From Tahibacter aquaticus (lineage in GTDB: Bacteria > Pseudomonadota > Gammaproteobacteria > Xanthomonadales > Rhodanobacteraceae): 24,000 nt of DNA. The DNA lies in contig NZ_SNZH01000019.1 in the NCBI RefSeq assembly GCF_004363655.1, positions 1-24,000 on the forward strand, in the 5' to 3' direction. The first letter of the stretch is position 1; the number at the start of each line of letters is the position of its first letter. Made by a program: the position numbers and the translations under genes. The notes under the pieces are model-generated. The model was not told where the DNA came from. It did not search any database and saw nothing but the letters and a program-made list of their open reading frames with translations. Shown in pieces: positions 45 through 21,115 of this stretch.

Positions 45-94
45 TGCTCCATCCTCTCAAGAGATGGAGTCTCCGGGGAAGCCGGGGCGGTTCA
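1..94 (-). mobile_element. Partial IS3-family-like insertion sequence: left terminus only, body lies beyond window start
   Basis: The minus strand from 94 reads TGAACCGCCCCGGCTTCCCCGGAGACTCC, a TG-initiated terminus as in IS3-family inverted repeats. It is followed by SD GAGAGGATGGAG and an ATG at 44. The family call rests on ~90 bp only, so it is tentative. Confidence 0.4.
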
Positions 95-532
95 CAACCT
101 CACGTCAAAGAGGCTCAGCGTTTCTCTAATCTGATGCGTGATACGCCTATCCGACTCGGATGGCTCACATACACCGCTCGGATGGTTGTGCGCCACAATG
201 ACTGCTGCGGCGTTATGCAGTAGCGCATATCGTGCAATGACACGCGGATGTACGGCGCAGCCATCAATCGATCCGCGAAACAGGATTTCGCACGCGATGA
301 CCCGGTGTCGACTGTCCAGGAATACACACGCGAATAGCTCCTCCGGGTTGCCGAGCAGTCGCAGCATGAGTAGCTCGCGTGCGGCACGCGGATCTCGTAC
401 ATGGAGCCGTCCGCTCAATCGCCGCTGAGCGATGCTCCGGGCCTCTGCCAGTATCCGTTCCTCGTAGTCGGTCTCGAACTCTTCCGGGAAAACCACGCGG
501 TGCCACAAAAGCCCTGCGGGATTGTCGAGCAT
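92..532 (-). CDS. radC: RadC-like JAB/MPN domain protein, apparently 3'-truncated by the adjacent IS terminus
   Basis: Part of track ORF 92..874. The realistic start is ATG at 532, preceded by GGAGG with a 6-nt spacer; the upstream extension is Arg/Ser-rich junk. The JAB motif VIVAHNHPSGVCEPSESD is present. The protein stops at ..LFDVRL*, where RadC-like proteins normally continue ~20-25 aa (LDHxxV..). The TGA stop (94-92) is the first three bases of the IS3-like end. Confidence 0.85.
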   Translation of the reverse strand: MLDNPAGLLWHRVVFPEEFETDYEERILAEARSIAQRRLSGRLHVRDPRAARELLMLRLLGNPEELFACVFLDSRHRVIACEILFRGSIDGCAVHPRVIARYALLHNAAAVIVAHNHPSGVCEPSESDRRITHQIRETLSLFDVRL

Positions 533-740
533 GTTTCGCCTCCAGCCCCGCGTCGCGGGGCATCTGTGGGATGCCCCACGCCGGGATGGCGCGGGAAAAG
601 TGAACTTTGTTTCGACAATATTTCTAGCAGCAACGATCTGCGGCTTCAATCCCACTGTGTAGGTAGTGAACTCCCGGCGCACGTAGCGCGCACCGCATGG
701 CTGCGGGGGATTTTCACAGGCGACTGCGCGAAAGTGATCG

Positions 741-810: not shown

Positions 811-915
811 GGGACTGGCACGCTCTTTTATCCCGAGAAAGCAGCGCGTGGCATAGCCGCGCGCTGGCCGTCACTGTCAGCTTGCGCCGCCAGTGACGGC
901 CTCCAAGACAATCGG

Positions 916-2397
916 TCAGCGCGACTTCTCCAACTGGGTACGCGCCGCTACGGCCAGCATTCGTCGGATTTCCGGATCTTCGGCGTAGTCGAGCAGGTGC
1001 CGCATTGAGCCGCTATCTATTGCGTTCACATCGGCACCCTTGTCGATAAGCAGTTGCACGACATCAGCATGACCATTCTGCGTGGCAAGCAATATCGCCG
1101 GCCCGCTTCCATGCTGGCCGTTCAGTGTCGTGTACGAGTAGAAGCCACCGCTTGGGTCAAAGCCATGCTCGACGGCATGGCGCACAATCTCTGTACTGCC
1201 GACAGCGGCAGCGATAGCAAGGATGCTACCCATGACCTTGCCTCGACCTCGCTCGCCGCGAATCGCCGCGTTCATCTGATGCACAGCTGAATCCGGCGGC
1301 CCTTCTTCGATCACGAAGCAGCTATCGCCTTGCGAGAAGAAGCCGCCGTCGATCAGCATTTTCGCCTGAGATATTGTCTGCTGGTCATTGGGTGCTGAAC
1401 GGATAGTCTTCGACACTGCCAAGCACAGCTCGTCGTACTTTGTCCCAGCAGCCGCTTCCAGTCGCCGCAGGGGTTCGAAGGGTGATTTTGCAATGCCGCC
1501 TGACTGCGCCTCCAACCACGAGGCCACTTCGAGCTTTCCCTGGGCCTTTGCGCAATCCTGTGGCTTGAACCCTTGATCGTTCAGGCGGCCCACATTCGCG
1601 CCGTGGCTTGCGAGCAGCTTGACCGTTTCCATGCGACCGGCGCAGGCAGCGAGGAACAACGGAGTTGAATCATGCTCTGCCAGCACATCGACCGGCGTTC
1701 CAAGCCTGATCAGTTCGGCCGCGCTATCGGCTGCGCCTTGTAAGGCGGCAAAGTGAAGCAGCGTCATCTCTCGCGGGCCGGCAAGGAGGTGCCACGGTGT
1801 GCGGTTCCCGAAGCGTTTCTCGTACTCCATCCGATTCAAAAGGTCTTTCGGGCGATTGTTCGAGATGCTCTCGACCACGCCGTTGAACGTCATCTCAGTA
1901 GCGGGATCGGTTATACGCTCCCCACGGCTTTCGCCCTGCCCGCCTTGTCCATCGTCGCTAGCCGCGTCCTGGGCCGTGATGGCAAGGCCTGTGATGCGAT
2001 ATGGCCCAGTATCGGAAACTACAACGCGCTCATTTGCTGTGAGGTTCCCGTACTCGACTGCGATCTTGTCGGTGGGACTCCATGACTTTACGTCCGCGCG
2101 CTTGAATCCACCCGCTGCCTCCTCGAAGTCCCTCATGGCAGCTATCCAGGCCTGTCTGTCGTAGTACCCGCGATAACCCTCGCTTGTCATGTCGTACGCG
2201 GCGGCGTAGTCGCCCTTCGAGCGGTATTCGTAGAACTGAGCCACCGTTGACTGTGGTGTGTCTGCGCTTTCCTTGGCGGTCGATGCTGCCGGCTTGTTGC
2301 TGGCGGCAGCAGTACTCGCGGCTTGGTCTGCGTCTTTCGAACAGCCGGCCACCGTCGCCGCCAGGAGCAAAACGCCGAGGACGTTGGAAATCTTCAT
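916..2397 (-). CDS. Lipoprotein with N-terminal small globular domain and multiple ankyrin repeats
   Basis: The 493-aa ORF has SD GAGAAAGG upstream. Its signal peptide ends in a lipobox (MKISNVLGVLLLAATVAGC|S). ANK repeat signatures are present: TPLFLAACAGRMETVKLLASHGANV, LHFAALQGAADSAAELIRLGTPVD, LLATQNGHADVVQLLIDKGADVNAID. Confidence 0.85.
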   Translation of the reverse strand: MKISNVLGVLLLAATVAGCSKDADQAASTAAASNKPAASTAKESADTPQSTVAQFYEYRSKGDYAAAYDMTSEGYRGYYDRQAWIAAMRDFEEAAGGFKRADVKSWSPTDKIAVEYGNLTANERVVVSDTGPYRITGLAITAQDAASDDGQGGQGESRGERITDPATEMTFNGVVESISNNRPKDLLNRMEYEKRFGNRTPWHLLAGPREMTLLHFAALQGAADSAAELIRLGTPVDVLAEHDSTPLFLAACAGRMETVKLLASHGANVGRLNDQGFKPQDCAKAQGKLEVASWLEAQSGGIAKSPFEPLRRLEAAAGTKYDELCLAVSKTIRSAPNDQQTISQAKMLIDGGFFSQGDSCFVIEEGPPDSAVHQMNAAIRGERGRGKVMGSILAIAAAVGSTEIVRHAVEHGFDPSGGFYSYTTLNGQHGSGPAILLATQNGHADVVQLLIDKGADVNAIDSGSMRHLLDYAEDPEIRRMLAVAARTQLEKSR

Positions 2398-2643: not shown

Positions 2644-2943
2644 ATGAAACGGTTTGGGGATCGGCTGAGGGAGGCGCGCATCGCAGCCGGCATGACGCAG
2701 GAGCAGCTCGGCTTCGAACTCGGCGTCACAAAATCATCGGTATCGGCCTGGGAGAACGGGCGCGAGACGCCCGGCTTCAGGCTGCTCGATACCCTGCGCC
2801 AAGCAGTCGGCCGATCACTCGATGAACTGATATGCGGCGCACCAGCCATCGCGAACATGGACGGGTCGAAAGACGCCCCTGGCGTTGACCCTGCGGCTAT
2901 TGTCACCGACCGCCCCCATGGAGCCATTCCAGGATCGCCGTAA
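2644..2943 (+). CDS. XRE-family helix-turn-helix regulator, disrupted: native sequence to 2900, then reads into the IS21-family element
   Basis: HTH_3-type N-terminus: MKRFGDRLREARIAAGMTQEQLGFELGVTKSSVSAWENG. From 2901 the ORF tail (..VTDRPHGAIPGSP*) is encoded by the IS inverted repeat. Confidence 0.85.
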   Translation: MKRFGDRLREARIAAGMTQEQLGFELGVTKSSVSAWENGRETPGFRLLDTLRQAVGRSLDELICGAPAIANMDGSKDAPGVDPAAIVTDRPHGAIPGSP

Positions 2944-3051
2944 TGGAGCCAGGTGCTGACCGGGGTAATGGAGCCAGCGAATGATCGGGCTATTGGAGCC
3001 AGCCGATGATCGCCGCAATGGAGCCAGCCGAGGATCGGGCTAAAGGCGCCA
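2918..3051 (+). repeat. Six subterminal direct repeats (~25-bp period, core AATGGAGCCA) in the IS21 left end; likely transposase-binding sites
   Basis: Core copies start at 2918, 2942, 2967, 2992, 3017 and 3042, the last being degenerate (AAAGGCGCCA). Only two inverted copies (TGGCTCCATT at 5557-5566 and 5581-5590) occur at the right end. Confidence 0.8.
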
Positions 3052-3122
3052 GCTGATGCCCTGAACGGGCTCTCGAACTCCCATTCACCGCTACCCTCCG
3101 GGCCTTTTGCCTGGGGGGAGCG

Positions 3123-4664
3123 ATGAGCAACCGGAGATTCGAGATGTATGAGTACCGACAGGTCCTGGTGCGATTGCGCCAGGGCGACTCCGATCGCGAT
3201 GTCGCGCGATCCCGTCTGATGGGGCGACGCAAGGTCGCCGAGGTTCGGCAGCAGGCTACCTCGCAGGGGTGGCTGGATGCCCAGCAGCCTCTGCCCGATG
3301 ATGCGGCCCTGGCTGCTGTGTTCAGCGACGCGCCGCGCACGCCGACCGCCGTATCAACGCTGGAACCCTGGCGAGAGCAGATCGTCACGTGGGTCGACGC
3401 GGGCGTGCAGGGCACGACGATCCACGCCACGCTCAGGCGCAACCACGGCTACACCGGCAGCTATTCCGCGGTCCGCCGTTTTGTTCAGCACATGGCCGCG
3501 CAGCGACCGCTGGTGACGACGATGCGGTTGACGTTCTTGCCGGCGGAGGCGGCACAGGTGGACTTCGGCGCTGGGCCGACGATCGTGGACGTGCACACCG
3601 GTGAGGTGATGAAGACGTGGATCTTCGTCATGACATTGGCGTTCTCGCGCCACCAGTACGCCGAGGTGGTGCGCGACCAGACGGTGGCCACATGGCTGGC
3701 CTGCCACCGCCGCGCCTTCGAGCACTTCGGCGGCGTGCCCGAGCGCATCATCATCGACAATCCCAAGTGCGCCATCACGCGGGCATCGGTCACCGATCCG
3801 GTCGTGCAGCGTGCGTATGCCCAGTGTGCGGAAGGCTATGGTTTTCGCATCAGTGCGTGCCCACCGGCAGACCCGCAGAAGAAGGGCATTGTCGAGTCCG
3901 GCGTCAAGTACATAAAACGTTCATTTGTTCCATTACGTACATTCCGCGACGTGCCCGATGCCAATCGCCAGCTGCTGGAATGGGTGTTCTCCGATGCTGG
4001 CACACGCTGCCACGGTACGACACGGGAGCAGCCACTGCGCGTCTTTGCGCAGACCGAACAGGCGCTGCTCAAACCGTTGCCCGACGTACCGCCGGAGCTG
4101 GCGGTATGGGCTCAGGTCAGTGTCCATCGTGACGCGCATGTGCAGTTCGAGAAGGTGCTGTACTCGGTGCCGTTCCGGCTCATGGGGCAGCGCCTGTGGC
4201 TCAAGGCCACGGCGAGCTTGGTCACCTGCTACCGCGAGCACGAGCTTGTCGCCACGCACCCGCGCCACTCGCGCCCCGGCGCGCGCAGCACGGTCCGCGA
4301 TCATCTGCCGCCCGAGGCGTTGGCGTGGTCGCTCGCCGATCCGCAGTACTGCCTGCAGGAAGCCCAACGGATCGGACCGTCGTGTTTGAAGCTCATCACG
4401 CGCCTGTTCGCTGATCGGGTCATGGACAACCTGCGAGCGGCGCAAGGCGTGATCCGTCTGGCCAAAGCCCACGGCCCGGCACGTCTGGAAGTGGCTTGTC
4501 AGCGCGCCATGAGCTTCGACTCGCCACGCTATCGCACCGTCAAGACCATCCTTGCCAATGGACTCGATCAGGCGGCGCAAGCCGACGCCTTCGACGCCAT
4601 GGCAGAGACCTATGTTCACGGCGGCCGGTTCTGCCGCCAGAACGATACCGGTCGGCGGCACTGA
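3123..4664 (+). CDS. istA: IS21-family transposase IstA
   Basis: The 513-aa product has an N-terminal HTH region and DDE-type motifs in IS21 order: QVDFG, IIIDNPKCAI, PQKKGIVESGVKYIK. It sits inside the inverted repeats, upstream of istB. Confidence 0.95.
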   Translation: MSNRRFEMYEYRQVLVRLRQGDSDRDVARSRLMGRRKVAEVRQQATSQGWLDAQQPLPDDAALAAVFSDAPRTPTAVSTLEPWREQIVTWVDAGVQGTTIHATLRRNHGYTGSYSAVRRFVQHMAAQRPLVTTMRLTFLPAEAAQVDFGAGPTIVDVHTGEVMKTWIFVMTLAFSRHQYAEVVRDQTVATWLACHRRAFEHFGGVPERIIIDNPKCAITRASVTDPVVQRAYAQCAEGYGFRISACPPADPQKKGIVESGVKYIKRSFVPLRTFRDVPDANRQLLEWVFSDAGTRCHGTTREQPLRVFAQTEQALLKPLPDVPPELAVWAQVSVHRDAHVQFEKVLYSVPFRLMGQRLWLKATASLVTCYREHELVATHPRHSRPGARSTVRDHLPPEALAWSLADPQYCLQEAQRIGPSCLKLITRLFADRVMDNLRAAQGVIRLAKAHGPARLEVACQRAMSFDSPRYRTVKTILANGLDQAAQADAFDAMAETYVHGGRFCRQNDTGRRH

Positions 4665-4733
4665 CAATAACCAACAAAGATTTATTGCAATCTGTTCACC
4701 TATATACACAAACTTATTGAAGGAATTGACACC

Positions 4734-5522
4734 ATGAACCCGATCCCACAGCTCAACCCCGCTCTCAAGCAACTGCGCCTGTCCGGCATCCTCGACTCCC
4801 TCGAAGCCCGTAACCGCCAGGCCGTCAGCGAACACCTCGCCTATACCGACTTCCTTGCCTTGCTCATCCACGACGAGATCGCACGGCGTGACCAGAAGAA
4901 ACTCGCCTTGCGTCTACGCCGCGCAAGCTTCCGCGCCGAGAAAACCCTCGATGGCTTCGACTTCGACCGAATCCCCTCGCTCAATCGCGCTCAGATCCAC
5001 GACCTGGCCACCGGTCGCTATCTCACCGAACGAGCGCCGGTTCTCATCGTCGGCCCCTGCGGCACCGGCAAAAGTCATCTCGCCCAGGCACTCGGCCACG
5101 CCGCCGCTCGCCACGGCCACGATGTGCTCTTCACCACACAGACCCAGCTCACCGGCACCCTGCACAAGGCGCGCGCCATCGGAACCTACGAACGGCGATT
5201 GCAGCAGCTGGCCAAGCTCGACCTCCTCATCATTGATGATTTTGGTCTCAAACCCCTGCGCACACCCCACGACGAAGATCTCCACGAACTCATCGCCGAA
5301 CGCTACGAGCGCAACTCCACCATCGTCACCAGCAACCTCGACTTCGACGAATGGCACGACGCCTTTCCCGCCAACCGCATCCTCGCCGAGGCCACCATCG
5401 ACCGCCTACGTCACGGCGCCTACCGCATCGTGCTCGACGGCGATTCCTACCGGGCTCCGCGTGATGCCAAATCCGCCCCGAAACCCCCTCTTGCCAAAGC
5501 CCCGAAATCCCCCGCATCCTGA
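4734..5522 (+). CDS. istB: IS21-family ATP-binding helper protein IstB
   Basis: The 262-aa product carries Walker A GPCGTGKSHLAQALG and Walker B DLLIIDDFG. SD GAAGGA lies 8 nt upstream of the ATG. Confidence 0.95.
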   Translation: MNPIPQLNPALKQLRLSGILDSLEARNRQAVSEHLAYTDFLALLIHDEIARRDQKKLALRLRRASFRAEKTLDGFDFDRIPSLNRAQIHDLATGRYLTERAPVLIVGPCGTGKSHLAQALGHAAARHGHDVLFTTQTQLTGTLHKARAIGTYERRLQQLAKLDLLIIDDFGLKPLRTPHDEDLHELIAERYERNSTIVTSNLDFDEWHDAFPANRILAEATIDRLRHGAYRIVLDGDSYRAPRDAKSAPKPPLAKAPKSPAS

Positions 5523-5606
5523 CCCTGTTCGAGAGCCCTTTTTAGGGCACTTCTACTGGCTCCATTAGCCCGATCTTGGGTGGCTCCATTAGGGCGGTCG
5601 GTGACA

Positions 5607-5708
5607 GCTATTGCGCGCAACCCCGACGAGCGCGCGCTGCTCGTGCACTACCGCCGTCTTCCGGCCAGCAAGCGTGGCGCGTGGCTGGAGCTGATCCGGC
5701 GCGAATAG
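5607..5708 (+). pseudogene. 3' fragment of the IS-split XRE regulator gene
   Basis: Reading GCT ATT GCG CGC.. from the duplicated GCTAT gives AIARNPDERALLVHYRRLPASKRGAWLELIRRE* (stop 5706-5708). This is in frame with 2644..2900 once the IS and one target duplication are removed. Confidence 0.8.
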
Positions 5709-5789: not shown

Positions 5790-6794
5790 GTGACACCTGC
5801 CTTCCCAATGCTCGGGTACTACACCGGCGAGCTTCGGGGAATGGCAATGTGGAAACGCTGGAGAACCTGGGTAATGCTTGCCCTGTTGGTCTTGCTGAAC
5901 ATTGCGGCCTGGGACATACGGACTGCACCTCAGCAGCATGCAGGAGTGATCCCGCTGTATCAGCACCAGCAGGATGGTGTCACTCAGTACACCGACCTAA
6001 AGCCCGATAGCTTCTATTATCGAAGCATCTGGTACTCCTGGGCTGTTGCCCTGTTCACCGGTTTCGTATTGCCCTTCATTGTGGCTTACCTTCTGCCGTG
6101 GCTGTGGCACCGAAGGAAGCACCTCATGCGAGGTATTTGGCGCGCTTTGGACAGCAGGAAAAAAAGGGCCCTTGCCACCTGCGTTGTTCTGTTTGTTGTA
6201 CTCAACATTCTTGCTTGGGACATAAAAACTTCGCCCTTTGAAGTTGCCGGGCCCATCACGCTCTACCAACACAAGATGGAGGCAGACGGCACGGCACCGT
6301 ACACGCAGCTATGGCCAAGTAAAATAGTTTACCAAAATCCTTGGCTTACTTATGGTTGGGCGATCTTCGTTGGCTTTGTCTTGCCGTTCGCACCCGTCGT
6401 CTTGCCTTGGCTATGGCGACGGTTCCGGCATGGCCCCGGTCGATCAACCTCAAGCTCTCTACAGGGAAGCAAAGTGGGGGCCGCCCTGGGCACCTTGACC
6501 CTGCTCATAGCCTTCAATGTCCTAGCTTGGAACTGGGCCGAATCCAGCGAGAAGGGCAAGTTGCTCATCGTGCTGGAAGAGCGGGTAGCTCGTGAAAATG
6601 TAGGGTTTCAGAGGTACGACGCTACGTACTACTCTGGCATCGCCCCAGGAATCCGCTTTCCCGACGTGGGCACCTCTGTGCTCGCCTCGTTCTTCGTCGG
6701 CGAAATCCTGCCTTTCCTGCTTGCCATCGCGCTGTTTCGACGCCGACAGCCGCCGGCCCTTCCGCTGCCCCCTGTCGCGGGAGCACCGCGATGA
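5790..6794 (+). CDS. Integral membrane protein, three tandem two-TM modules (6 TM); family not recognised
   Basis: 334-aa ORF with a GTG start at 5790 (GAGAGG ~12 nt upstream); alternative ATG starts at 5808 or 5841 are possible. Six hydrophobic helices carry the repeated motifs LNIAAWD/LNILAWD/FNVLAWN and GFVLPF/GFVLPF/GEILPF. The stop overlaps the next gene's start (ATGA at 6791-6794). Confidence 0.8.
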   Translation: MTPAFPMLGYYTGELRGMAMWKRWRTWVMLALLVLLNIAAWDIRTAPQQHAGVIPLYQHQQDGVTQYTDLKPDSFYYRSIWYSWAVALFTGFVLPFIVAYLLPWLWHRRKHLMRGIWRALDSRKKRALATCVVLFVVLNILAWDIKTSPFEVAGPITLYQHKMEADGTAPYTQLWPSKIVYQNPWLTYGWAIFVGFVLPFAPVVLPWLWRRFRHGPGRSTSSSLQGSKVGAALGTLTLLIAFNVLAWNWAESSEKGKLLIVLEERVARENVGFQRYDATYYSGIAPGIRFPDVGTSVLASFFVGEILPFLLAIALFRRRQPPALPLPPVAGAPR

Positions 6795-8746
6795 ACTTAG
6801 ATACCCTTTGGATGACGCTTCAAGTCGTCATCATTATTGTTCTCGCCATCTTCGTCGCGTATGCCGTGTCAGTTTGGCGTGATCGACGTGCCATTCAGGC
6901 CCTGCTAGACGCGGTAGATTTTTACTCTACGGTCGCCCATGGAACTGCCGACTGGAATCGCAATGCCTTCCCCGGCATCAAGCCTGGTCCGCTCTTCTTA
7001 GGCGCAGCCAATGGCAGCGCGATGTACTACGACGGTGACCAGCACCTGATAACCATTGCCCCGACTAGAACGGGCAAGGGAACCTGCCACATCATTCCCA
7101 ACCTGCTGACCTACCCGGGCAGCATGGTCGTAAACGACATCAAGGGAGAGAACTACAAGCTGTCCGGAGAGAGACGCGGCCACTTCGGTAAGGTCTTCCG
7201 ATTCGCGCCCTTCGAGAACGACACCAGTGGCTTCAACCCGCTGGACTTCGTACGACGAGGCACGCCCGCCGCATTCGATGACGCCATGCTCATCGCCGAC
7301 ATGCTCATCGTGCCAGGGAAAGATGAAGAAGAGGGCAATCACTGGAAGGAAGCCGCCAAGAACCTATTGGCAGGCCTCATCGGCTACGTCAGCGAAACTG
7401 AGGAAGGCGAGCGGAACATGCAGCGCGTCCGCCAGTTGCTGACGCTCAATCAGAAAGCATTTCTTGAATTCGTCCGAGACAAGATGACGGCTTCGAAATC
7501 CGCCTTCGTCGTGCGCGCGGCCAACATACTGCTACAGAAGGCTGACCGCGAGCGTAGCGGCGTTGTCTCGACGGCACAGGCGCAGACCACTATATGGGAT
7601 AGCGAACATCTGTCGACAGCAACAAAAGTTAGTAGTTTTGGCCTTGAAGAGCTGCGTGACCAGGTGGCGACCCTCTACATCATTATTCCCCCGGAACATC
7701 TGAGCACCTACAAGGGGGTGCTGCGCGTCGTACTCGGACTAGCCCTATCGACGATGACCAGGCAGTTGCCAACACGGAACGACCGACCACCGCTGACCTT
7801 CCTGTTCGATGAGTTCCCGAGCCTGGGCTATATGCAGCCCATCGTAGACGGCATGGCCTACCTCGCTGGCTACGGCTGTCGGCTTTGGCTCTTCGCGCAA
7901 GACCTCGGCCAAATCCGTGAGACTTACGGCGACAAGGCCACCTCGCTACTGGCCAACTGCGGAGCGCGCTCCTTCTTCGGCGTTGCCGACTACGAAACTG
8001 CCGAATATGTCTCGAAGATGGTCGGTCAGAAAACCATTCGAACTTCATCCAGAACCTTCAAGACCAGCAAAATTTTGTTCTGGGCTGACGTTTGGGGCGT
8101 TGAAACCCAGAGTCTGCAATATGTCGGCGTGCCGCTTATCACGCCCGACGAAGTCATGCGAATACCGACTTGGGGCGATCAGCAGCGGCAAATCGTATTC
8201 CTACAAGGACAACGCCCGGTCTTGGCGTACAAAATCCCTTACCAGGATGTAGCAGTCTGGGCTGCTGCTGCGGTGCGTGCGCCGGTGTCGGTGCAGCTCA
8301 ACCAGTCGCCTATGCCGCCAAGCGATGTGCCAGAGGCTTCACAACAACCGGAGGTTGTAGCTGCAACTGGCACGGCTAACAGGGGGGTGAAAATACCCCT
8401 TGCAACCAAGCCGGGGTCTGCTTACATAAAAGGAGGCAACAAGCGAAAGGGTCAGGGGATGACCGCGACTTACGAACTCATTGAAGAATCCGAGGCCAAC
8501 TCGGAGAAAATGCACGAAAGCATGGTTCAATCAGCACAGCGTGCCCGCGAGGCAGAGCAAAAAGCAAAAGTACTGCAAAATGAACTTGCGACGTTGCCGT
8601 CTCAAGACCCAAGACGAGAAGGCTTGCTAAAACATATCGAGCTTTTGCAACTCATCGTCCAAACCGCTCGCGAAAACGTGTCGGATGGCCGCCTGGTATT
8701 GGATGCCGAGAGTGCTTTTGCAAAACGCCTCAAGGATGGATCATGA
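6791..8746 (+). CDS. traG: Type IV secretion coupling protein (VirD4/TraG family ATPase) with single N-terminal TM helix and long charged C-terminal tail
   Basis: The 651-aa product shows these motifs: HGTADW, Walker A ITIAPTRTGKGTCHIIPNLL, VVNDIKGENYKL, NPLDF, Walker B-like PLTFLFDEFPSLG, and RLWLFAQDLGQIRETYG. One hydrophobic segment spans residues ~8-28. The C-terminal ~150 aa are rich in E/K/Q/A heptad-like sequence. Confidence 0.92.
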   Translation: MNLDTLWMTLQVVIIIVLAIFVAYAVSVWRDRRAIQALLDAVDFYSTVAHGTADWNRNAFPGIKPGPLFLGAANGSAMYYDGDQHLITIAPTRTGKGTCHIIPNLLTYPGSMVVNDIKGENYKLSGERRGHFGKVFRFAPFENDTSGFNPLDFVRRGTPAAFDDAMLIADMLIVPGKDEEEGNHWKEAAKNLLAGLIGYVSETEEGERNMQRVRQLLTLNQKAFLEFVRDKMTASKSAFVVRAANILLQKADRERSGVVSTAQAQTTIWDSEHLSTATKVSSFGLEELRDQVATLYIIIPPEHLSTYKGVLRVVLGLALSTMTRQLPTRNDRPPLTFLFDEFPSLGYMQPIVDGMAYLAGYGCRLWLFAQDLGQIRETYGDKATSLLANCGARSFFGVADYETAEYVSKMVGQKTIRTSSRTFKTSKILFWADVWGVETQSLQYVGVPLITPDEVMRIPTWGDQQRQIVFLQGQRPVLAYKIPYQDVAVWAAAAVRAPVSVQLNQSPMPPSDVPEASQQPEVVAATGTANRGVKIPLATKPGSAYIKGGNKRKGQGMTATYELIEESEANSEKMHESMVQSAQRAREAEQKAKVLQNELATLPSQDPRREGLLKHIELLQLIVQTARENVSDGRLVLDAESAFAKRLKDGS

Positions 8747-9081
8747 CCACGCTGCAAGAAGAAGAGGTCCGCTGTAAGCGACGCTTACTAGATGCCGTGG
8801 AGCAGAAGAAGAGCGTGGAAGACCAGCTCGTAGCGAAAGAAGACGAGCTAGAAAAAAAGGGCTTCACGCCTGAGCTTTGGGCGAAAGTCGATAAGCTACA
8901 AAAGCAACGCGCCGAACTCATTTCTTTAGTGAGTGCCCGAGGAGCCGAATGGCGAGAGGCAAAAGCAAACCTAGACGCTGAGCATCAGCTTGAAGAACGG
9001 CGCGCCCGTGAAGCCGAAAGCCAGAAGGCGCGTGAGCAAGAACGCGCTAAGGGAAAGGAAATAGACGACCTGGAACTTTAG
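8743..9081 (+). CDS. Small highly charged coiled-coil protein, translationally coupled to the T4CP gene
   Basis: 112-aa ORF. Its ATG overlaps the T4CP stop (ATGA at 8743-8746), with AAGGATGGA upstream. The sequence is dominated by E/K/R/Q/A/L (EDELEKKG.., LEERRAREAESQKAREQERAKGKE). Confidence 0.7.
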   Translation: MTTLQEEEVRCKRRLLDAVEQKKSVEDQLVAKEDELEKKGFTPELWAKVDKLQKQRAELISLVSARGAEWREAKANLDAEHQLEERRAREAESQKAREQERAKGKEIDDLEL

Positions 9082-9117
9082 CGGCGTAGATACACCGCCG
9101 TAATCTGCTCGCGCTCG
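9078..9117 (-). pseudogene. 40-bp relic of the 3' end of a tyrosine-recombinase gene
   Basis: The minus strand reads EREQITAVYLRR*. Positions 9088-9117 are 30/30 identical to 10073-10102 and 27/30 identical to the 3' end of the intact integrase (10621-10650). Confidence 0.65.
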
Positions 9118-9269: not shown

Positions 9270-9932
9270 TCATGCACCGCGGTCGGCGACCTCGCGGGCA
9301 CGATGCGCAACTAGGGTGATTTTTGCCCACAACTCTTCTGCACTTTTTGCCAATTCTTGTATCTTCTCATCGTCGGTATCTGACCATATGTCAAGGACGA
9401 GCAATGCCTTCTTCCCCAGGAGCAAGGTGTCGCGATCAAAGTCTCGGCCTAATTCGATTGCTTCGGCAAACGTCGCCTCTGATCCTCCTAGCAAGTGCGC
9501 CCGCTCTAAAAACGTCACCAGCTCCTGCTGCGCAGAAAATTCAATACGCGCATCGCCGCTCAAGTATTTGCCCGCGATCTCCCGACTGTTTCCGTAGGCT
9601 AGAAAACGTCCGCCGATCCCGACCCGCGCGCCCCATTCTTCGAGGGGTGGGAGTATTCGCCTCGCGAATGCCCGAGCGGCTGTGACCTCCACTCTGCGTA
9701 GGTCAGCTAGTGCGTGCCCTCGCTGTATGGCGAGTACTAAAAACACTGCCACCAACGTGCCTGCGGACAGCAAGGCTTGCGCCCAGGCCGCGCAGGCACT
9801 TAACCAGCTTGGGTCTTTCATGCATAGCGGCTTGGCGATTCCCCAGAGCTCTAGGCAAAAGATGCCGAGACCAACGACCAGCCCGCCCCAACCAAGTCCC
9901 GCGCTCGCAATCTTCAATGCCCTGCGAATCAC
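9270..9932 (-). CDS. Hypothetical protein with two N-terminal TM helices and a soluble C-terminal domain
   Basis: 220-aa ORF with a GTG start preceded by a strong SD (GGAGGAG, 6-nt spacer). Hydrophobic segments: GLGWGGLVVGLGIFCLELWGI and ALLSAGTLVAVFLVLAI. No family was recognised. Confidence 0.7.
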   Translation of the reverse strand: MIRRALKIASAGLGWGGLVVGLGIFCLELWGIAKPLCMKDPSWLSACAAWAQALLSAGTLVAVFLVLAIQRGHALADLRRVEVTAARAFARRILPPLEEWGARVGIGGRFLAYGNSREIAGKYLSGDARIEFSAQQELVTFLERAHLLGGSEATFAEAIELGRDFDRDTLLLGKKALLVLDIWSDTDDEKIQELAKSAEELWAKITLVAHRAREVADRGA

Positions 9933-10610: not shown

Positions 10611-11492
10611 CTATCGACCGAGATAGACCGCCGTTATCTGCTCTCGCTCGTGGCCCAGCTCGCGAGAAATCTTCAACCTGGCATCGCGGTCGCGGGCCTT
10701 GTCGTCAATACCGAGCTGACGTGAGGTCGGGCCGCCGGCAGCAGGGCAAGGAAAGCCCGTTTCCTCCAGGTAGCGACGCTGCGCATACTGATGCCGTAGG
10801 CCGTGGGTTTTCGAGAGGCCAGCCTTCGCCGTCTGGTGCTTGAAGGTGTTGAGCTGTTCAACATAGAGCTTGTTGGACGGAATCAGCGAGCCGCCTTTGG
10901 CGAAGCCAGCGACCTCCTGGAGCAAGGCCACCTGTTCCGCCGTGCGTATCGGAACCTCGCGCGGCCTTCCGCCCTTGCACCAGGACGCCTTGAGCTGTAC
11001 GACCTGGCCGACTTCAATGGCGACCAACGCGACCTTGGGGCGAAACTTCAGGGCTTCTTCGCGGCGCAGGCCAAAGGCGGCCTGCAAGCGCAGGGCATAC
11101 CGCGTCCAGGGATCAGTGACCCGCTCCAGGCCATCGCCGCCCAACTCAACAGCCTTGGTCTTGTTGGTGACGTACTTGCGGTCAGCAATGCCGTAAAAGG
11201 CGTTGTCGCTGGCAATGATGCCCGGCTTGCCGACCTTTTCGGCCCACCACCGAAGGGCCGCCATGCGGTTCTTCACCGTGCCGACTGACAGGTCTTGTCC
11301 ACGCCAGGACTTCACCAACGCCTCGACGTGCTTCGGCTTGAGGCTGTCGGCAGTCATATTCTGATAGCCCAACCCCTTCAGGTCGTCGGCCATCTTGGTC
11401 AGAGTCTTTAATCTCTCTGCCTGGGTGCCAAAGCTCCCGTCTTTGTTGCGGTAGGCCAGGTGTCGCAGGTCGTATTTCAAGCTCACACGCAT
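10611..11492 (-). CDS. Tyrosine recombinase / phage-type integrase
   Basis: The 293-aa product has an N-terminal SAM-like region (KPKHVEALVKSW..TVKNRMAALRWW). The catalytic signature reads AFGLRREEAL (Arg), KGGRPREVPI, THGLRHQYAQ (His-x-x-Arg), and LGHEREQITAVYLGR* (His..Tyr), with the Tyr four residues from the C-terminus. Confidence 0.9.
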   Translation of the reverse strand: MRVSLKYDLRHLAYRNKDGSFGTQAERLKTLTKMADDLKGLGYQNMTADSLKPKHVEALVKSWRGQDLSVGTVKNRMAALRWWAEKVGKPGIIASDNAFYGIADRKYVTNKTKAVELGGDGLERVTDPWTRYALRLQAAFGLRREEALKFRPKVALVAIEVGQVVQLKASWCKGGRPREVPIRTAEQVALLQEVAGFAKGGSLIPSNKLYVEQLNTFKHQTAKAGLSKTHGLRHQYAQRRYLEETGFPCPAAGGPTSRQLGIDDKARDRDARLKISRELGHEREQITAVYLGR

Positions 11493-11684: not shown

Positions 11685-11960
11685 CTAGCTCCCCTCCTGG
11701 CCGGAAGGGGAAAGCACCCGATGCAGGTTTTTCGCGTGGGCCTGTCCACGTTGAGGGTTTCCCCTCGAACCGTCCTGAAACGCCTGTAGGTTTCGTTTCA
11801 AGCGTTCCGCCTTGCCCCGGCTCATATCGCGTTCGTGGCGCGCCTGGGCTGTCTCCTGATGCGCTTCCATGAGCGCGACCAGCAGACGCGCGTTCTCGCG
11901 GCGGAGGGTTCCGACTTCCGCACGGAGGGCCGCGAGCTGTTCCGCGACGCTGGTCGTCAT
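11685..11960 (-). CDS. Hypothetical small coiled-coil protein upstream of the integrase (start uncertain: ATG 11960 or TTG 11987)
   Basis: Track ORF 11685..11987. The N-terminal half is heptad-like (AEQLAALRAEVGTLRRENARLLVALMEAHQETAQARHE). The C-terminal third is low complexity. No convincing SD was found. Confidence 0.4.
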   Translation of the reverse strand: MTTSVAEQLAALRAEVGTLRRENARLLVALMEAHQETAQARHERDMSRGKAERLKRNLQAFQDGSRGNPQRGQAHAKNLHRVLSPSGQEGS

Positions 11961-12015: not shown

Positions 12016-12052
12016 GCGTCGTCATTGTCAGCTTGGCAGCCAATGACGACGC
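12016..12052. repeat. Perfect 12-bp inverted repeat with 13-nt spacer in ORF-free DNA
   Basis: GCGTCGTCATTG (12016-12027), then tcagcttggcagc, then CAATGACGACGC (12041-12052). Confidence 0.85.
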
Positions 12053-12891
12053 TGCGTGTTGCTACGCCCCCCCGAAAACGCCACGCCGGTTTTGGACAGG
12101 CACGCCGGTTCTTCAGTTTTGTGAAGACTGTTCACGGGCGTCAGGCGGCCAGTACGCCTTCAGACAACAGAGGAGATGAACGCTTTCGTCTAGCGGCAGG
12201 GGGGGGCTCACCCTTCCCCCTTTGTCGTATCCGACAACAGCCGTCTGAGTTCTGTCGGCTACAACCATCCCGAAGCGGTCGGCATCTTGCGGTTCACGCT
12301 ACGCGGCTCGCAGCCGCCTCCGCAGGTGCGTTTCGCAGACCATATAGCTGAGAGGATCGGCGCCTTCACCGCAGCGAGGCATACCGGAGCGTGGTCGAGC
12401 AATCCTCTCACCGCTGTCTGGCCAGCTATTGCCGTAGTAACCGTTGCGTGCTTCTGCGTCCAGCGCACATCGCCTTCTTCTGCCTGGGGTCGTCGTGTTC
12501 TAGGGCTAGCCACCAAATTCTTCCTGACCTAGGCCCTTACCCCCCCCGTGCCGTGTGGCCAAGAAATGGACTCGTTGCCCAACCCGAATCACGCAGATCA
12601 ATCGCGACTACGGCGGAATGCAAAGGAATCACGAAAACTTGTGCTGTCGACGGACGTGTCGGATAGTCGCCCTACTAGCGAACCGCGCTCTCACGCTACG
12701 CTTCAACTGCTGGAGCGATTAGTTCGCAGAGCCTAACGGATGGCGGCAATTTTTGGTGCACGCTCACATTCAAGTTCGCCAGTGTTCGAAAAGCGACTGT
12801 TCAGTTTGGCTCTATCTGCGATTCAAGAATCTGCATAGGAAACCACCAAGCCGGTTGCGTTTTATGATTATCCTTTTAAAAGGACATTCTT

Positions 12892-13530
12892 GTGACTCGC
12901 TCTTACTATCGTATTTATCAGTACCGTCCAGATAGTCAACCACGCGACTTTGATACTTTTTTGGCGAGCCGCGTATGGTCAGCATCTATTGAAAGTCTGA
13001 ATGATCCATTTGAGTTCCATGCCTTTAGTACCCTCGCGTCAAGACCAGAAATGCATGCACAGTTCGCAAGTGCTGGCGTGACATGCTTCTGTCGTGCGCT
13101 TACAAATCCGCTGCTCTGGTCACACTACGCCAACGGCCATACCGGATTTTCTGTTGGATATGATCCTGCACATCCATTCTTCGGTGGCGATAAGGAAATG
13201 CGTATGCGAATTCTGCACGACGTTCGCTACGAAGACATTCCTCCAAACGCCGATTTTCTGGAGGGTGATGACCTGGCTATGGCGGCAGTTCTTACAAAGC
13301 CAACTTGCTGGGCGTATGAGCAGGAGGTGCGACTCATTACGCGAGAATCTAAACGACTTGTCGATATCCCGACGGATGCGATTAAAGAGTTGATATTAGG
13401 TGCTCGAATGTCGTCTGATCGGGTCACTGAGATTGTCAATAAGATCCAATCGATCAACATGAATGTGAAGATTGCCAAGATGCAGTTCTCCAGAGAGAGC
13501 TATGGCGTTAGACCGCAGTGGATCGCATAG
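12892..13530 (+). CDS. DUF2971-family protein
   Basis: 212-aa ORF with a GTG start and AAGGA 8 nt upstream. Motifs YRIYQYR, SLNDPFEF, LWSHYA and CWAYEQEVRL match my recollection of PF11185. It lies in a more A/T-rich segment. Confidence 0.8.
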   Translation: MTRSYYRIYQYRPDSQPRDFDTFLASRVWSASIESLNDPFEFHAFSTLASRPEMHAQFASAGVTCFCRALTNPLLWSHYANGHTGFSVGYDPAHPFFGGDKEMRMRILHDVRYEDIPPNADFLEGDDLAMAAVLTKPTCWAYEQEVRLITRESKRLVDIPTDAIKELILGARMSSDRVTEIVNKIQSINMNVKIAKMQFSRESYGVRPQWIA

Positions 13531-13599
13531 CTTTGGTATGCGCGCAGGTAAGCATTGGCCTACTGGAGGCTGAACCTAAGCCCTAAAAGGACTACGGAT

Positions 13600-14304
13600 A
13601 TGTCGTCGCGCACAAAGGTTCCAGGCTCGACTCAGGCCGAGGTGCTTGTCCAATCTCGTCGCCGATGCTGCATTTGCTACGGACTATCCAAAGACTCCTC
13701 CGTCAAAAAGGGGCAAATTGCCCACCTCGACGGTGATCGGAACAACAACGCATCAAAAAATCTAGCCTTTCTGTGCTTCGACCATCACGACGAATTCGAC
13801 TCACGGACAAGTCAGAGCAAAGGACTTCAGACGACGGAAATAGAGATCTACCGAGAGGAGCTCTACTACACTTTTGGAAGTTGGAGTGCTCAGCTTCATC
13901 GAGACGAGCTACTTAACTTTCTAGCATTCTACGCTGCGGACTACGATGCTATGGCGAAAGCTGCGATCAAGGCCGGACATTCTGTCGTCTTCTATGGAGA
14001 AGAGCTTGCATTTGATGTACTTGTAACTGACCAAGTCGACTACTGTGACGGAGATCTATATCTTCCGCATATTGCTGTACTCGAACTCTTTGCCGCTTGG
14101 GGTTGGCTAACGTTCTCATACGAAGAGCAAAAGGATGAGAATGACATTACGTCAAGGGTTTTAATAAGAGCTGATCGGAAGCCTATTTGCGACGAGGTTG
14201 CGAAACGCCTTCTGACTGCACTTGAGTCCAAGCAAGACGTTTACCAAAGCCTTGCTGCCAAAGCCAAGCATCGAGGGTGGTCGCGTGATGAAGGTAGCCC
14301 CTAA
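13600..14304 (+). CDS. HNH-type nuclease domain protein with unassigned C-terminal domain
   Basis: The ATG at 13600, with AAAGGA 8 nt upstream, is preferred over the TTG at 13555. The N-terminal signature is RRRCCICYG..GQIAHLDGDRNNNASKNLAFLCFDHHDEFD (CxxC, His, Asn-rich, CxxHH). The remaining ~150 aa are unassigned. Confidence 0.75.
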   Translation: MSSRTKVPGSTQAEVLVQSRRRCCICYGLSKDSSVKKGQIAHLDGDRNNNASKNLAFLCFDHHDEFDSRTSQSKGLQTTEIEIYREELYYTFGSWSAQLHRDELLNFLAFYAADYDAMAKAAIKAGHSVVFYGEELAFDVLVTDQVDYCDGDLYLPHIAVLELFAAWGWLTFSYEEQKDENDITSRVLIRADRKPICDEVAKRLLTALESKQDVYQSLAAKAKHRGWSRDEGSP

Positions 14305-14593
14305 CGGCAACTACCGCCACGTCACGAGTCACCGACTGGCTGAACGTCAACCGTCATTACCTCTAGTACGAACGCGATCAAGGCTGACCTCAGGCCACTG
14401 CCCCTTGAAACAGCCCCGATAGGGGCAAGTAACTGCCGTCCGCCTCTCTGCCTTCAATCTGTGGGCTGTGCGGTGAAAATGTTCTACACAATTCCTGCAC
14501 AGGCTTTTTTCTGTCAATTTAATCTTGTAAAAACAAATAGATGCGAATGCATCCTTCCACCGCTGGAAGGACCGACCTTCGCAAACCCAGGAA

Positions 14594-15382
14594 TTGGTCG
14601 CCCTTGATGTGGACTCGATCCACCGCATTGTGTATGACCCGGAGCGGTTTTCCGAAGTCTCCGTTCTCGTCGTCGACTACTTCATGCCGGAAATGGACGG
14701 CGTCACCTTCTGCAAGCGGCTCAACAATCCGCTGATCGGCAAGATCCTGCTCACCGGCCGCGCGGAAGACTCGGTCGCGATCGAAGCCTTCAATTCCGGC
14801 GTGATCGATCGCTTCATTCGCAAGAGCGATCCGCAGGCCATGGCCAAATTGCAAGTCGCCATCCGCGAATTGCAGCAGCGCTATTTCGAGCGCGCCGGCG
14901 CCTTCGTCGCCGAAGCGTTGGCGATGGGGCGATTCTCGTTCCTGCGCGATCCAGCCTTCCGTGCCGTATTCGATTCGGTCGTGGCTACCTTCCAGCCGAT
15001 CGAATCGTATGTGGTGTGCAATCCCACTGGCGTGCTCATGCTCGACGCCTGGGGAGTGGGCCGCTTCTTGCTTGTACAGACCGACGATGATCTGCGCGAG
15101 CAACACGATGTGGCCGAAGATCGCGGTGCCCCGGACAACCTGCTGCGTGCCTTGCGCTCCGGCAGTGCCTTGCCCTGGTTCTGGTCCAGCGGTGGCTTCT
15201 ACAGCCCGCAAATTGCCGACCCTGGCGCAAACCTGTTTCCGGCCACCGCGATACAAGGCGATAACTGCTACTACTTCAGCCTTATCGATCACCTTGAACC
15301 GCTGCAGCTGGCCCATGTGAAGTCGTACCGCAACTGGTTGCGCGAACAGGACAATATCGACATCCCGCCGCGCGCGGGATAG
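14594..15382 (+). CDS. Receiver-domain (LqsR-like) response-regulator protein, apparently 5'-truncated at the island junction
   Basis: The phospho-acceptor region VLVVDYFMPEMDGVTF, followed by GKILLTGRAE..AFNSGVIDRFIRK, lies only ~28 aa after the first possible start (TTG). The frame is closed by a TAA at 14528-14530. The N-terminal acidic-pocket part of a receiver domain is absent. Confidence 0.75.
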   Translation: MVALDVDSIHRIVYDPERFSEVSVLVVDYFMPEMDGVTFCKRLNNPLIGKILLTGRAEDSVAIEAFNSGVIDRFIRKSDPQAMAKLQVAIRELQQRYFERAGAFVAEALAMGRFSFLRDPAFRAVFDSVVATFQPIESYVVCNPTGVLMLDAWGVGRFLLVQTDDDLREQHDVAEDRGAPDNLLRALRSGSALPWFWSSGGFYSPQIADPGANLFPATAIQGDNCYYFSLIDHLEPLQLAHVKSYRNWLREQDNIDIPPRAG

Positions 15383-15511
15383 TCGCGCATCATCGCAAAC
15401 CCTCTCGATTCCGACCGGCCCAAGGCCGGACCGGTCGTCCCGCTGCGGCGCCGTAACCGCAGCCAGCCAGGGATGGCTTGGTCCATAAACTCCCGTGAGA
15501 GGTTTGCAGTC

Positions 15512-16798: not shown

Positions 16799-16847
16799 GG
16801 CCCGAGCCCCATCGCGCTGTTGCACTGGTTGAATGAGTGAAAACCGG

Positions 16848-16872
16848 GCGGCCCGAACAGGGCCGCTTTTTT
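16848..16872 (+). terminator. Rho-independent terminator after the autoinducer synthase gene
   Basis: GCGGCCC (16848-16854), loop gaaca, GGGCCGC (16860-16866), followed by TTTTTT (16867-16872). Confidence 0.75.
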
Positions 16873-16885
16873 CGTGCCTGTCGTG

Positions 16886-17008: not shown

Positions 17009-17041
17009 CCGTCATGCGTGCCGCGGTTTGCAGCAAGGATT

Positions 17042-17908: not shown

Positions 17909-17950
17909 GGCTCAACCCTGTATGGCGCCGACCGCACTGGCGCATTAATG

Positions 17951-21096: not shown

Positions 21097-21115
21097 AAAA
21101 CTGCTGCGCTACTGA

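Follow-up and report, generated by a model that had tools for sequence, protein, structure and literature searches.

A candidate mobilisation module with its own coupling protein and an integrase-like putative relaxase in a Tahibacter aquaticus genomic island

Described mobilisation systems and the Tahibacter operon

Several plasmids and integrative mobilisable elements (IMEs) encode a relaxase and their own type IV coupling protein (T4CP) but no type IV secretion system (T4SS), as in the case of CloDF13 with MobB/MobC. The membrane domain of the T4CP contacts the T4SS, and it has been shown to be important in MobB of CloDF13. In the two-partner T4CPs (the TraG-TraJ pairs and TraJ/TraI of pIP501), a reduced or absent T4CP membrane domain is accompanied by an adjacent membrane protein, which is presumed to make up the missing membrane-proximal portion of the coupling complex (Llosa & Alkorta). 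Mobilisation of Salmonella genomic island 1 (SGI1) requires mpsA, mpsB and an inverted-repeat-rich origin of transfer (oriT) just upstream of mpsA (Kiss et al.). The Burrus lab signature for its atypical relaxase, MpsA, is PF12835 ('INT_DTR_like') (PMC10484663); the residues described for it are R162, H247, R250, H251 and Y319, with an R-to-H spacing of 85, and the protein has been modelled to 91-94% on XerH and Cre (Kiss et al.). A 2026 preprint unites the tyrosine-recombinase-like relaxases TcpM, MobK and MpsA as MOB_M, and reports that they are the commonest relaxases of the chromosomes it covered and are abundant in chromosomal islands, that standard profiles miss them, and that they carry integrase annotations and usually stand beside a true integrase (bioRxiv 10.64898/2026.01.13.699239). 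A marine mobilome survey has also placed PF12835 in relaxase-less T4CP elements. Here we compare with these systems a three-gene operon, composed of ORF-A, a T4CP gene and ORF-C (ORF, open reading frame), in a stretch of 24,000 nucleotides from Tahibacter aquaticus (contig NZ_SNZH01000019.1 of assembly GCF_004363655.1, positions 1 to 24,000), which is referred to throughout as the window. With a probability that we put at roughly 0.55, the trio would be the coupling module of a T4SS-less mobilisable island, so far found only in Lysobacterales, that hijacks a helper T4SS and employs a neighbouring PF12835 protein as its relaxase. The features on which this reading turns are the following.

5847..6794 (longest ORF from 5790), + strand: ORF-A, a 315-aa predicted inner-membrane protein
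6791..8746, + strand: T4CP gene, encoding a 651-aa VirD4/TraG-type coupling protein
8743..9081, + strand: ORF-C, 112 aa, K/E-rich, fast-evolving and clade-restricted
9079..9117, - strand: Int1-like 3'-end remnant, the last 12 codons (...EREQITAVYLRR and stop), abutting the ORF-C stop codon
10063..10158, - strand: second Int1-like 3'-end remnant, 96 nt, 81% identical to 10611-10706
10611..11492, - strand: Int1-like tyrosine-recombinase-like protein, 293 aa, with PF12834 N-terminal and PF12835 catalytic domains
11685..11960, - strand: 91-aa ORF directly upstream of the Int1-like gene (192-bp gap) and co-conserved with it
12016..12052, + strand: site B, inverted repeat GCGTCGTCATTGTCAGCTTGGCAGCCAATGACGACGC, the family-typical site of Int1-like genes, marking the conserved backbone edge
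865..902, + strand: site A, inverted repeat GGCCGTCACTGTCAGCTTGCGCCGCCAGTGACGGCC, with 10-bp arms and a 13-14 nt spacer, a paralogue of site B in the same orientation

The three genes are translationally coupled and strictly linked. ATGA occurs at both junctions, with a Shine-Dalgarno-like GGAG/AGGA 8-12 nt upstream of each. Homologues of ORF-A are extremely rare (only 14 among 5.8e9 proteins), and each one examined shows the 4-bp overlap and lies upstream of a T4CP gene of the same clade, while ORF-C is represented by two cluster representatives among 1.8e9 proteins. All three genes are under purifying selection, with ratios of nonsynonymous to synonymous substitution (dN/dS) of 0.16-0.20 for the T4CP, 0.23-0.30 for ORF-A and about 0.3-0.4, near saturation, for ORF-C (0.16-0.43 overall). 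Given this strict linkage and purifying selection, the trio is an operon that functions and is inherited as a unit, not one in decay. Its two accessories, ORF-A and ORF-C, are confined to the clade and in every case linked to the T4CP. Eight loci were compared (L001-L006, L011 and L027, with L001 carrying the same insertion sequence (IS) as the window). In the clade loci an XRE regulator and RadC invariably go with the operon, and a convergent module (site B, the 91-aa ORF and the PF12835 protein) stands beside it wherever the contig reaches far enough.

The assignment of the middle gene to the VirD4/TraG family of T4CPs is solid, with Pfam matches of its 651-aa product to T4SS-DNA_transf (PF02534; 2.3e-84), TraG-D_C (7.6e-28) and TrwB_AAD_bind (9.7e-23). 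The protein keeps the domains of conjugation-type T4CPs, namely the nucleotide-binding domain (NBD), the all-alpha domain and the TraG-D_C region; Walker A K96 and Walker B D340/E341 are intact, and the APTRTGKG and DEF motifs are invariant across the clade. All 12 of its NCBIfam matches fall below cut-off (the best, IncP TraG, with 276 bits vs 674), so that none of the curated T4CP subfamilies (IncP TraG, VirD4, Ti TraG, TraD) is reached. The closest solved sequence is Cag-beta (8DOL, 2e-17), and among plasmid T4CPs identity does not exceed 41% and is confined to residues 50-484. Members of the clade share 61-99% identity at lengths of 651-683 aa and are found only in Lysobacterales-type metagenome contigs, Tahibacter soli and one Lysobacteraceae metagenome-assembled genome; outside it, identity falls sharply to about 45%. 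The nearest outgroup T4CPs (45-46% identity) lie in two islands, L007 and L008, with the order integrase, 150-aa ORF, T4CP and MobA_MobL and with no T4SS genes, which from their gene content can be classed as IMEs. The 150-aa ORF was considered as an equivalent of ORF-A and rejected, for it has no transmembrane (TM) segment and looks, by eye, like a tandem repeat of helix-turn-helix (HTH)/excisionase type.

With the CloDF13-type plasmids and these IMEs the window thus shares a T4CP beside a DNA-processing gene and a candidate oriT. Unlike them, it has neither an HUH (MobA/MobL) nor a MobC-type relaxase, its candidate relaxase being tyrosine-recombinase-like, and its T4CP bears a long C-terminal helical tail that the 507-aa outgroup proteins do not possess, together with two clade-specific flanking genes. 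At the other end of the T4CP, a hydropathy scan reveals a single TM segment (residues 10-28) ahead of the NBD. The alignment with IncP TraG begins at TraG position 84, and therefore TM1 and the periplasmic loop of the canonical two-TM membrane domain are missing. An AlphaFold2 (AF2) model gives a confident N-terminal helix (3-45) and two C-terminal helices (555-601 and 607-649; predicted local distance difference test, pLDDT, 66-88), joined to the rest by a linker at about residues 497-554 that has low confidence and is probably disordered. The model is shallow (mean pLDDT 41), its core is unreliable and too poor for fold comparison, and only the terminal helices are trusted.

ORF-A begins at the conserved ATG at 5847 (MWKRW), not at the GTG at 5790, as judged by homologue comparison. 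Its six TM segments, predicted by hydropathy, are arranged in three clearly alignable 2-TM repeats, and for each repeat AF2 proposes a TM helix, a three-stranded sheet and a second TM helix, with a loop of about 40 aa (pLDDT 72, predicted template-modelling score 0.35). The last 14 residues (PPALPLPPVAGAPR, window 6750-6794) are nearly invariant, the rest of the protein being only 45-76% identical. Since this C-terminus overlaps the ribosome-binding site and start codon of the T4CP gene, the constraint on it may act on the RNA and not on the protein; it may otherwise mark a contact peptide. No relative of ORF-A was found in Pfam, NCBIfam or PADLOC, and a Foldseek search of its model against the PDB returned nothing below E = 0.7. 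A PHROG 'holin' match was rejected as a 20-residue TM match only. A derivation of ORF-A from a split-off T4CP membrane domain received no support from hhalign (probability 0.4%, a weak test with one qualifying template). ORF-C has no family match in Pfam, NCBIfam or PADLOC, and its composition indicates that it is probably helical. Scans of ORF-A, ORF-C, the 91-aa ORF and a 220-aa ORF further downstream against PHROGs, NCBIfam and PADLOC were uninformative. By these searches ORF-A and ORF-C appear to be new proteins with no relatives outside the clade, and ORF-A also has no fold match. A reduced T4CP membrane domain with an adjacent membrane protein recalls the two-partner T4CPs, whose partners, unlike ORF-A, belong to self-transmissible systems; they are unrelated to it in sequence, and the threefold TM / beta loop / TM architecture of ORF-A is unique.

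Much of the preliminary description of this DNA, which had been drawn from the sequence alone, holds. The coordinates and junction sequences agree with its three same-strand ORFs overlapping at ATGA; all the T4CP motifs it quoted (HGTADW, APTRTGKG, VVNDIKGEN, LTFLFDEFPSLG and WLFAQDLGQ) are present in the 651-aa translation, and the three Pfam domains vindicate its identification of a VirD4/TraG-type ATPase. Its 6-TM protein made of three 2-TM modules is recovered by hydropathy and repeat alignment, its long C-terminal tail corresponds to the AF2 linker and long helices, and its small charged protein after the T4CP is the 112-aa, K/E-rich ORF-C. The neighbourhood check it had proposed, on whether both flanking genes accompany the T4CP elsewhere, yields strict linkage in all homologues examined. 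The single N-terminal helix was also counted correctly, but it can no longer be considered unusual, as one-TM proteins are common among the nearest relatives (among 108 of them, a crude hydropathy count gives 34 with one segment, 31 with two and 11 with none). Its statement that no described system has this gene trio is true of ORF-A and ORF-C and too broad otherwise, since T4CPs are known both with separate membrane partners and on mobilisable elements.

No cognate T4SS is seen alongside the T4CP. A Pfam scan of the large ORFs of the 24-kb window finds no VirB/Trb, pilin or canonical relaxase family, in agreement with the earlier observation that no VirB4, VirB11, pilin or relaxase motif could be recognised there, and no T4SS or canonical relaxase family lies within ±10 kb of the T4CP in five related loci (L003-L006, L027); a full VirB/Trb set with a relaxase in the same element, which had been named as the outcome that would speak against an orphan T4CP, is not seen over that span in any of the five. 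As in an IME, the DNA visible contains no mating-pair-formation genes of its own.

The Int1-like protein, its module and the family repeat

The absence of a relaxase near the operon, the other half of the preliminary claim, is true only of canonical families, and the premise itself is probably wrong. The PF12835 protein encoded 1.5 kb downstream of the operon (293 aa; PF12835 2.6e-10, 40.9 bits against a cut-off of 23; PF12834 7.1e-19) is a candidate relaxase of the MOB_M/MpsA type. Its catalytic set (R143, K173, H230, R233, H234, H281 and Y290) is invariant in 7 and in 15 sequences, the R-to-H spacing is 86-87 residues and the tyrosine stands 3 residues from the C-terminus. Because this gene belongs to a conserved module of Int1-like gene, 91-aa ORF and inverted repeat, the T4CP is probably not an orphan.

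In its DNA-processing part the island resembles the mpsA-mpsB-oriT module of SGI1. Both have a PF12835-type protein, with the R and H-x-x-R-H residues and a Tyr near the C-terminus, next to a small ORF (in the window probably helical, to judge from its N-terminal heptad-like A/L/R-rich stretch) and an inverted-repeat-rich, GC-rich cis site a few hundred bp upstream, and in both a T4SS-less chromosomal island would carry a relaxase annotated as 'integrase'. The two differ in that SGI1 encodes no T4CP and relies on the one of IncA/C plasmids, and in that the window protein has a recognisable N-terminal SAM-like domain (PF12834), MpsA and the 293-aa protein having been compared by signature and described residues.

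The 293-aa protein is 94-100% identical, with a dN/dS of 0.05, across loci whose T4CPs are 67-70% identical in alignment. Since the Int1-like and 91-aa genes are less diverged than the T4CP operon also at synonymous sites (dS 0.13-0.72 vs 0.99-1.22), the data suggest that the recombinase module has been exchanged among islands or was acquired more recently. The 12-codon Int1 remnant that abuts the ORF-C stop codon indicates that the operon and the Int1-like gene were once directly convergent, and that small cargo genes were inserted later. Copies of the Int1 3' end are also found in L005 (609-704 vs 3761-3856), around an acetyltransferase / C39 peptidase block, and serial insertions appear to target the 3' ends of Int1-like genes.

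Site B folds much better than shuffled sequence (DNA hairpin z = -4.0, with 0/200 shuffles as stable), the DNA fold of site A has z = -2.0, and inter-locus DNA homology ends immediately to the right of each. Both conform to a repeat of the whole Int1-like family, with core GTCAYT...ARTGAC, usual form GCGTCGTCACTR...YAGTGACGACGC and arms GCGTCGTCAYTR / YARTGACGACGC, situated 430-1440 bp upstream of Int1-like genes and enclosing a loop that varies in sequence and in length (spacer 3-20 nt). The repeat is present on alpha- and gamma-proteobacterial plasmids and in 27/31 long metagenome loci, where it is single and intact. Such a single, intact site is more readily reconciled with an oriT or a site of resolution than with an attP core, because integration would split the latter, and site B is hence regarded here as a candidate oriT. 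Sites A and B were also considered as attL and attR of one element; this seems less likely, the family being single-site and site A pairing with a left-hand Int1 paralogue. The island of the window is unusual in its second, paralogous copy of the repeat, for there is one per locus elsewhere (L012-L024, L029-L099). In many loci (among them L036, L040, L049, L056, L064, L066, L074, L079, L089 and L090) a left arm GTTACT faces a right arm AGTGAC, and this recurrent one-sided C-to-T difference, which would give a G-T mismatch in a hairpin, might mark a strand or nick position.

The Int1-like family is large (more than 7,900 matches of about 288 aa) and occurs on 236 plasmids, of which 143 are called non-mobilizable by MOB-suite. 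Among 121 neighbour ORFs from 37 metagenome loci there are 8 PF00589 integrases and 3 large serine recombinases within 4 kb, and since a separate canonical recombinase is commonly next door, the Int1-like protein would usually not be the integrase of its element, in keeping with what is described for MOB_M. A general linkage of the family to T4CPs was looked for and not found, a T4CP being present in only 1/80 metagenomic loci (L038). The association is instead limited to particular lineages, where it is tight and polyphyletic. On pSIO1, a Pleionea plasmid, L038 and four Rhizobiaceae plasmids, an Int1-like gene stands beside a T4CP gene, with no T4SS gene in the stretch viewed. The Vibrio plasmid pSIO1 has four annotated genes in 4.9 kb (a hypothetical gene, the Int1-like gene, a 73-aa ORF and the T4CP), and on the Pleionea plasmid unnamed2 the two genes are 2 bp apart; MOB-suite scores both replicons as non-mobilizable. 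A GTCAYT...ARTGAC repeat lies about 530 bp upstream on pSIO1, and the strongest upstream hairpin on the Pleionea plasmid has a different sequence. A search of the literature on pSIO1, pHS-Rec and pCCK13698 yielded nothing on the function of the Int1-like gene.

At least four lineages, which share only 21-32% identity, are represented among these paired T4CPs, and their Int1-like partners are 50-58% identical to that of the window. Because unrelated T4CP lineages share similar Int1-like partners, the pairing, whether assembled repeatedly or ancient, argues for a functional link. The two small plasmids thus resemble the window in having an Int1-like gene beside a T4CP and no T4SS gene in sight. 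They differ from it in that their T4CPs, 24-25% identical to that of the window, have two or more TM segments, in that their genes are co-directional whereas those of the window are convergent, in that they possess no homologues of ORF-A or ORF-C, and in that they are plasmids and not an island.

Proposed mechanism and rival explanations

If the trio is indeed the coupling module of a mobilisable island, the PF12835 protein, with or without the 91-aa protein, would bind and nick site B in the manner of an MpsA/MOB_M-type relaxase. The T4CP would then recognise the relaxase-DNA complex, its C-terminal helical hairpin being the probable point of contact and ORF-C perhaps serving as an adaptor, and dock it onto the inner-membrane platform of a co-resident T4SS of the MPF_T type (VirB/Trb-like) supplied by a helper plasmid or integrative and conjugative element (ICE). 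ORF-A would substitute for, or extend, the reduced membrane domain of the T4CP as a dedicated membrane partner, and the XRE regulator would keep the operon silent until induction. In this copy the regulator gene is cut after the HTH by an IS21-family element, which separates the operon from its upstream region, and the operon may hence be misregulated, deregulated or silenced. A PF12835-type recombinase with a dedicated T4CP is not described as a mobilisation unit in the literature searched.

Several observations weigh against this proposal. NCBIfam gives the 293-aa protein no name, and its putative link to MpsA, MobK and TcpM runs through signature and residue pattern. It is moreover a complete recombinase whose N-terminal domain is of the core-binding type, and MpsA, MobK and TcpM are described in one paper as having no core-binding domain, although the modelling of 91-94% of MpsA on XerH and Cre points the other way. 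The 91-aa ORF is upstream of the Int1-like gene, whereas mpsB is downstream of mpsA; plasmid Int1-like homologues do have 70-110-aa ORFs directly downstream. On the four Rhizobiaceae plasmids a MobA/MobL relaxase co-occurs with the Int1-like gene, which for that reason need not be the relaxase there. The low frequency of T4CPs in the metagenomic loci also counts here, although 1/80 would be expected of relaxases as well, because most mobilisable elements borrow the T4CP of their helper. For ORF-A, neither a fold relative nor, in a weak test, any similarity to T4CP membrane domains was detected, and the roles given above to ORF-A and ORF-C are pure inference. Finally, the island shows no canonical integrase, att pair or tRNA target: there are no tRNAs, no PF00589-only integrase and no convincing flanking direct repeats, only Int1-like recombinases are seen, and the left end lies beyond all contigs viewed.

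An unlikely alternative is a mobilisation module in which the Int1-like protein acts only as integrase/excisionase or as a resolvase at the inverted repeat, and in which the T4CP would couple to the helper T4SS a relaxase provided by the helper or encoded elsewhere in the island. The complete active site and core-binding-type domain, the MobA/MobL genes of the Rhizobiaceae plasmids and the lack of any other visible integrase would all fit such a role, as would the Int1 3'-end remnants, which bracket small cargo genes as if insertions targeted that point, and the break of inter-locus homology exactly at both inverted repeats, which favours some recombination activity there. Against it, loci that have a separate integrase still contain the family repeat as one intact copy, which is unexpected for an attP core; the spacer of the repeat varies between 3 and 20 nt; and beside the T4CPs of pSIO1 and the Pleionea plasmid the Int1-like protein is the only candidate DNA-processing enzyme. 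Variable spacers are atypical of the crossover sites of tyrosine recombinases. A decaying ICE remnant, having lost T4SS and relaxase and left the trio with no current function, would account for the missing T4SS and canonical relaxase genes and for the IS in this copy, but it is scarcely credible and was rejected on the dN/dS values: the three genes are intact in every locus (T4CP identity 67-99%; dN/dS 0.16-0.43), their order is kept across genomic contexts and the Walker A/B residues are invariant.

The remaining alternatives dispense with conjugation. The preliminary description had offered, beside a mobilisation module that hijacks a helper T4SS, a T4CP-fold translocase repurposed with its own membrane partner for exclusion or defence. 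The former is favoured by the IME-like islands of the outgroup T4CPs, by the lack of a T4SS within ±10 kb and by the strict linkage of the trio, its assumption of a missing relaxase being the part that probably fails. The latter, taken broadly as a T4SS-independent translocase with an anti-plasmid, anti-phage, exclusion or DNA-handling role, seems improbable. In its favour, the island holds abundant cargo of defence type, neither ORF-A nor ORF-C occurs outside the clade and no T4SS is seen nearby, yet the trio belongs to the conserved backbone, whereas defence genes occupy the variable slots; the T4CP keeps all conjugation-type domains; its closest relatives lie in IMEs next to MobA/MobL; and the pairing of Int1-like and T4CP genes on tiny plasmids is hard to explain as defence. 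In PADLOC-DB the T4CP produces only a weak mad8 match (2.2e-5, 22 bits), and ORF-A and ORF-C produce none. Somewhat more doubtful still is a membrane DNA translocase composed of ORF-A, the one-helix T4CP and ORF-C, sufficient in itself and working with no T4SS, in which the threefold 2-TM partner would anchor and gate the hexameric ATPase and nicked island DNA would pass to a non-T4SS route, or the assembly would serve as an exclusion/defence pump; were this true, it would constitute a new functional class of T4CP-based machine. A bacteria-killing X-T4SS exists in the order Xanthomonadales, and the host clade thus invites the idea of an accessory coupling protein for a resident effector T4SS of this kind, delivering the ankyrin protein encoded near the operon or an S8 subtilase. 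The ankyrin-repeat protein weakly resembles Dot/Icm Ank effectors, and a large S8 peptidase is found further left in sister loci. Such a role is nevertheless very unlikely, given that both genes are variable cargo absent from several trio-bearing loci, that the NCBIfam Ank matches are to generic repeats and far below cut-offs, and that the conserved partners of the trio (the Int1-like gene and inverted repeat) are of DNA-processing type.

Should the mobilisation reading with a PF12835 relaxase be correct, the island and small plasmids such as pSIO1 would be hitch-hikers equipped with their own T4CP and an integrase-look-alike relaxase, and conjugative gene flow, including the spread of defence islands, would be underestimated wherever the PF12835 family occurs. 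They would provide a compact model for the recognition by a T4CP of a tyrosine-recombinase-type relaxase, for which a covalent link at the 3' end is expected, and for the feeding of such a substrate to a T4SS. ORF-A, in turn, would be a clean candidate for a separately encoded T4CP membrane adaptor, with a bearing on how coupling proteins select heterologous secretion systems and dock to them. None of this overturns established views; it points to a probably large, mis-scored class of mobilisable elements.

Island backbone, variable slots and insertion sequence

The remaining features of the island are these.

92..592, - strand: RadC-like JAB-domain gene (Pfam RadC 1e-31; longest ORF to 874; gene callers give 146-166 aa)
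916..2397, - strand: ankyrin-repeat protein, 493 aa (Pfam Ank_2 2e-18), in a variable slot between site A and XRE
2644..2902, + strand: 5' part of an XRE-family HTH regulator gene, cut by IS21, with the HTH kept
2901..5606, + strand: IS21-family element, with istA (3123-4664) and istB (4734-5522); Pfam rve, Mu-transpos_C_2 and IstB_IS21 (8.7e-63)
5607..5708, + strand: XRE 3' remnant, aligning to L002 6015-6116, with the stop codon at 5706-5708
9270..9932, - strand: 220-aa ORF in a variable slot, with Int1 3'-end remnants on both sides

The backbone follows the order RadC, site A, variable gene, XRE, ORF-A/T4CP/ORF-C, variable slot, Int1-like gene, 91-aa ORF, site B and variable cargo, and in the eight loci, as far as each contig extends, this order is kept across different genomic contexts. 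RadC adjoins the operon in all clade loci and has a dN/dS of 0.12-0.19. Site A is present in every clade locus, upstream of RadC, and in the sister loci it heads a string of RadC, cargo and left-hand Int1-like paralogue. To the left of RadC, outside the window, come ParDE, an Int1-like paralogue and cargo, for example an S8 peptidase. On the right, the conserved backbone has its edge at site B, around 12055. The content of the slots is variable: that of the ankyrin gene holds an unrelated 226-aa gene in L003 and a 300-aa gene in L005, and in place of the 220-aa ORF L005 has a 336-aa gene and L027 four different genes.

The XRE gene upstream of the operon had been described as disrupted by an IS, and an IS-free sister contig (L002), together with the terminal inverted repeats of the element, proves this. 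The IS21 ends in 26-nt inverted repeats (2901-2926 and 5581-5606) and has four 25-nt-spaced subterminal repeats at its left end (2919-3058), to which copies at the right end correspond. The insertion is polymorphic, since L002, otherwise 99.9-100% identical, does not carry it, and it is associated with a 5-7 bp target duplication. The regulator is intact in L002 and L006 (117 aa; HTH_3 6e-14), and in L002 it lies 165 bp upstream of ORF-A.

Cargo in the sister loci includes Gabija-like OLD/UvrD, ParDE, FRG and restriction enzyme genes, and in the window a DUF2971 gene and an HNH-like gene. The latter two lie in a low-GC block (about 0.50) at ~12100-14450, between site B and chromosomal genes, which encodes a DUF2971 protein (phrog_1762, 5e-37) and a 234-aa protein with weak HNH-endonuclease matches. 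At the same point a Gabija-like OLD/UvrD pair, a metallophosphatase or a SEC-C protein is encoded in sister loci, and because different cargo occupies this position from locus to locus, the point to the right of site B is a defence-cargo hotspot.

In L003, L005 and L006 a second Int1-like paralogue, 57-60% identical to the right-hand one and on the same strand as RadC, is located further left. It has a 51-aa ORF directly downstream (L003-L005), ParDE beyond (L003, L004, L006) and a small inverted repeat of its own (ACTCCCGG...CCGGGAGT) 300-400 bp upstream, so that the island resembles a tandem pair of related modules. L026 shows a rearrangement, in which RadC stands between XRE and ORF-A (L026 7091-7591) and two site-A-type repeats (3612-3649 and 4881-4918) flank a 1.2-kb segment, an arrangement consistent with recombination at these sites.

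Beyond the cargo block, positions 14594-23941 of the window resemble ordinary chromosome (GC 0.63-0.69) and encode a partial response-regulator-domain protein, a class I/II aminotransferase, an alpha/beta hydrolase, a class I fumarate hydratase and a 941-aa DUF11-repeat protein. A long ORF on the opposite strand, at 14519-16825, is probably an artefact of high GC.

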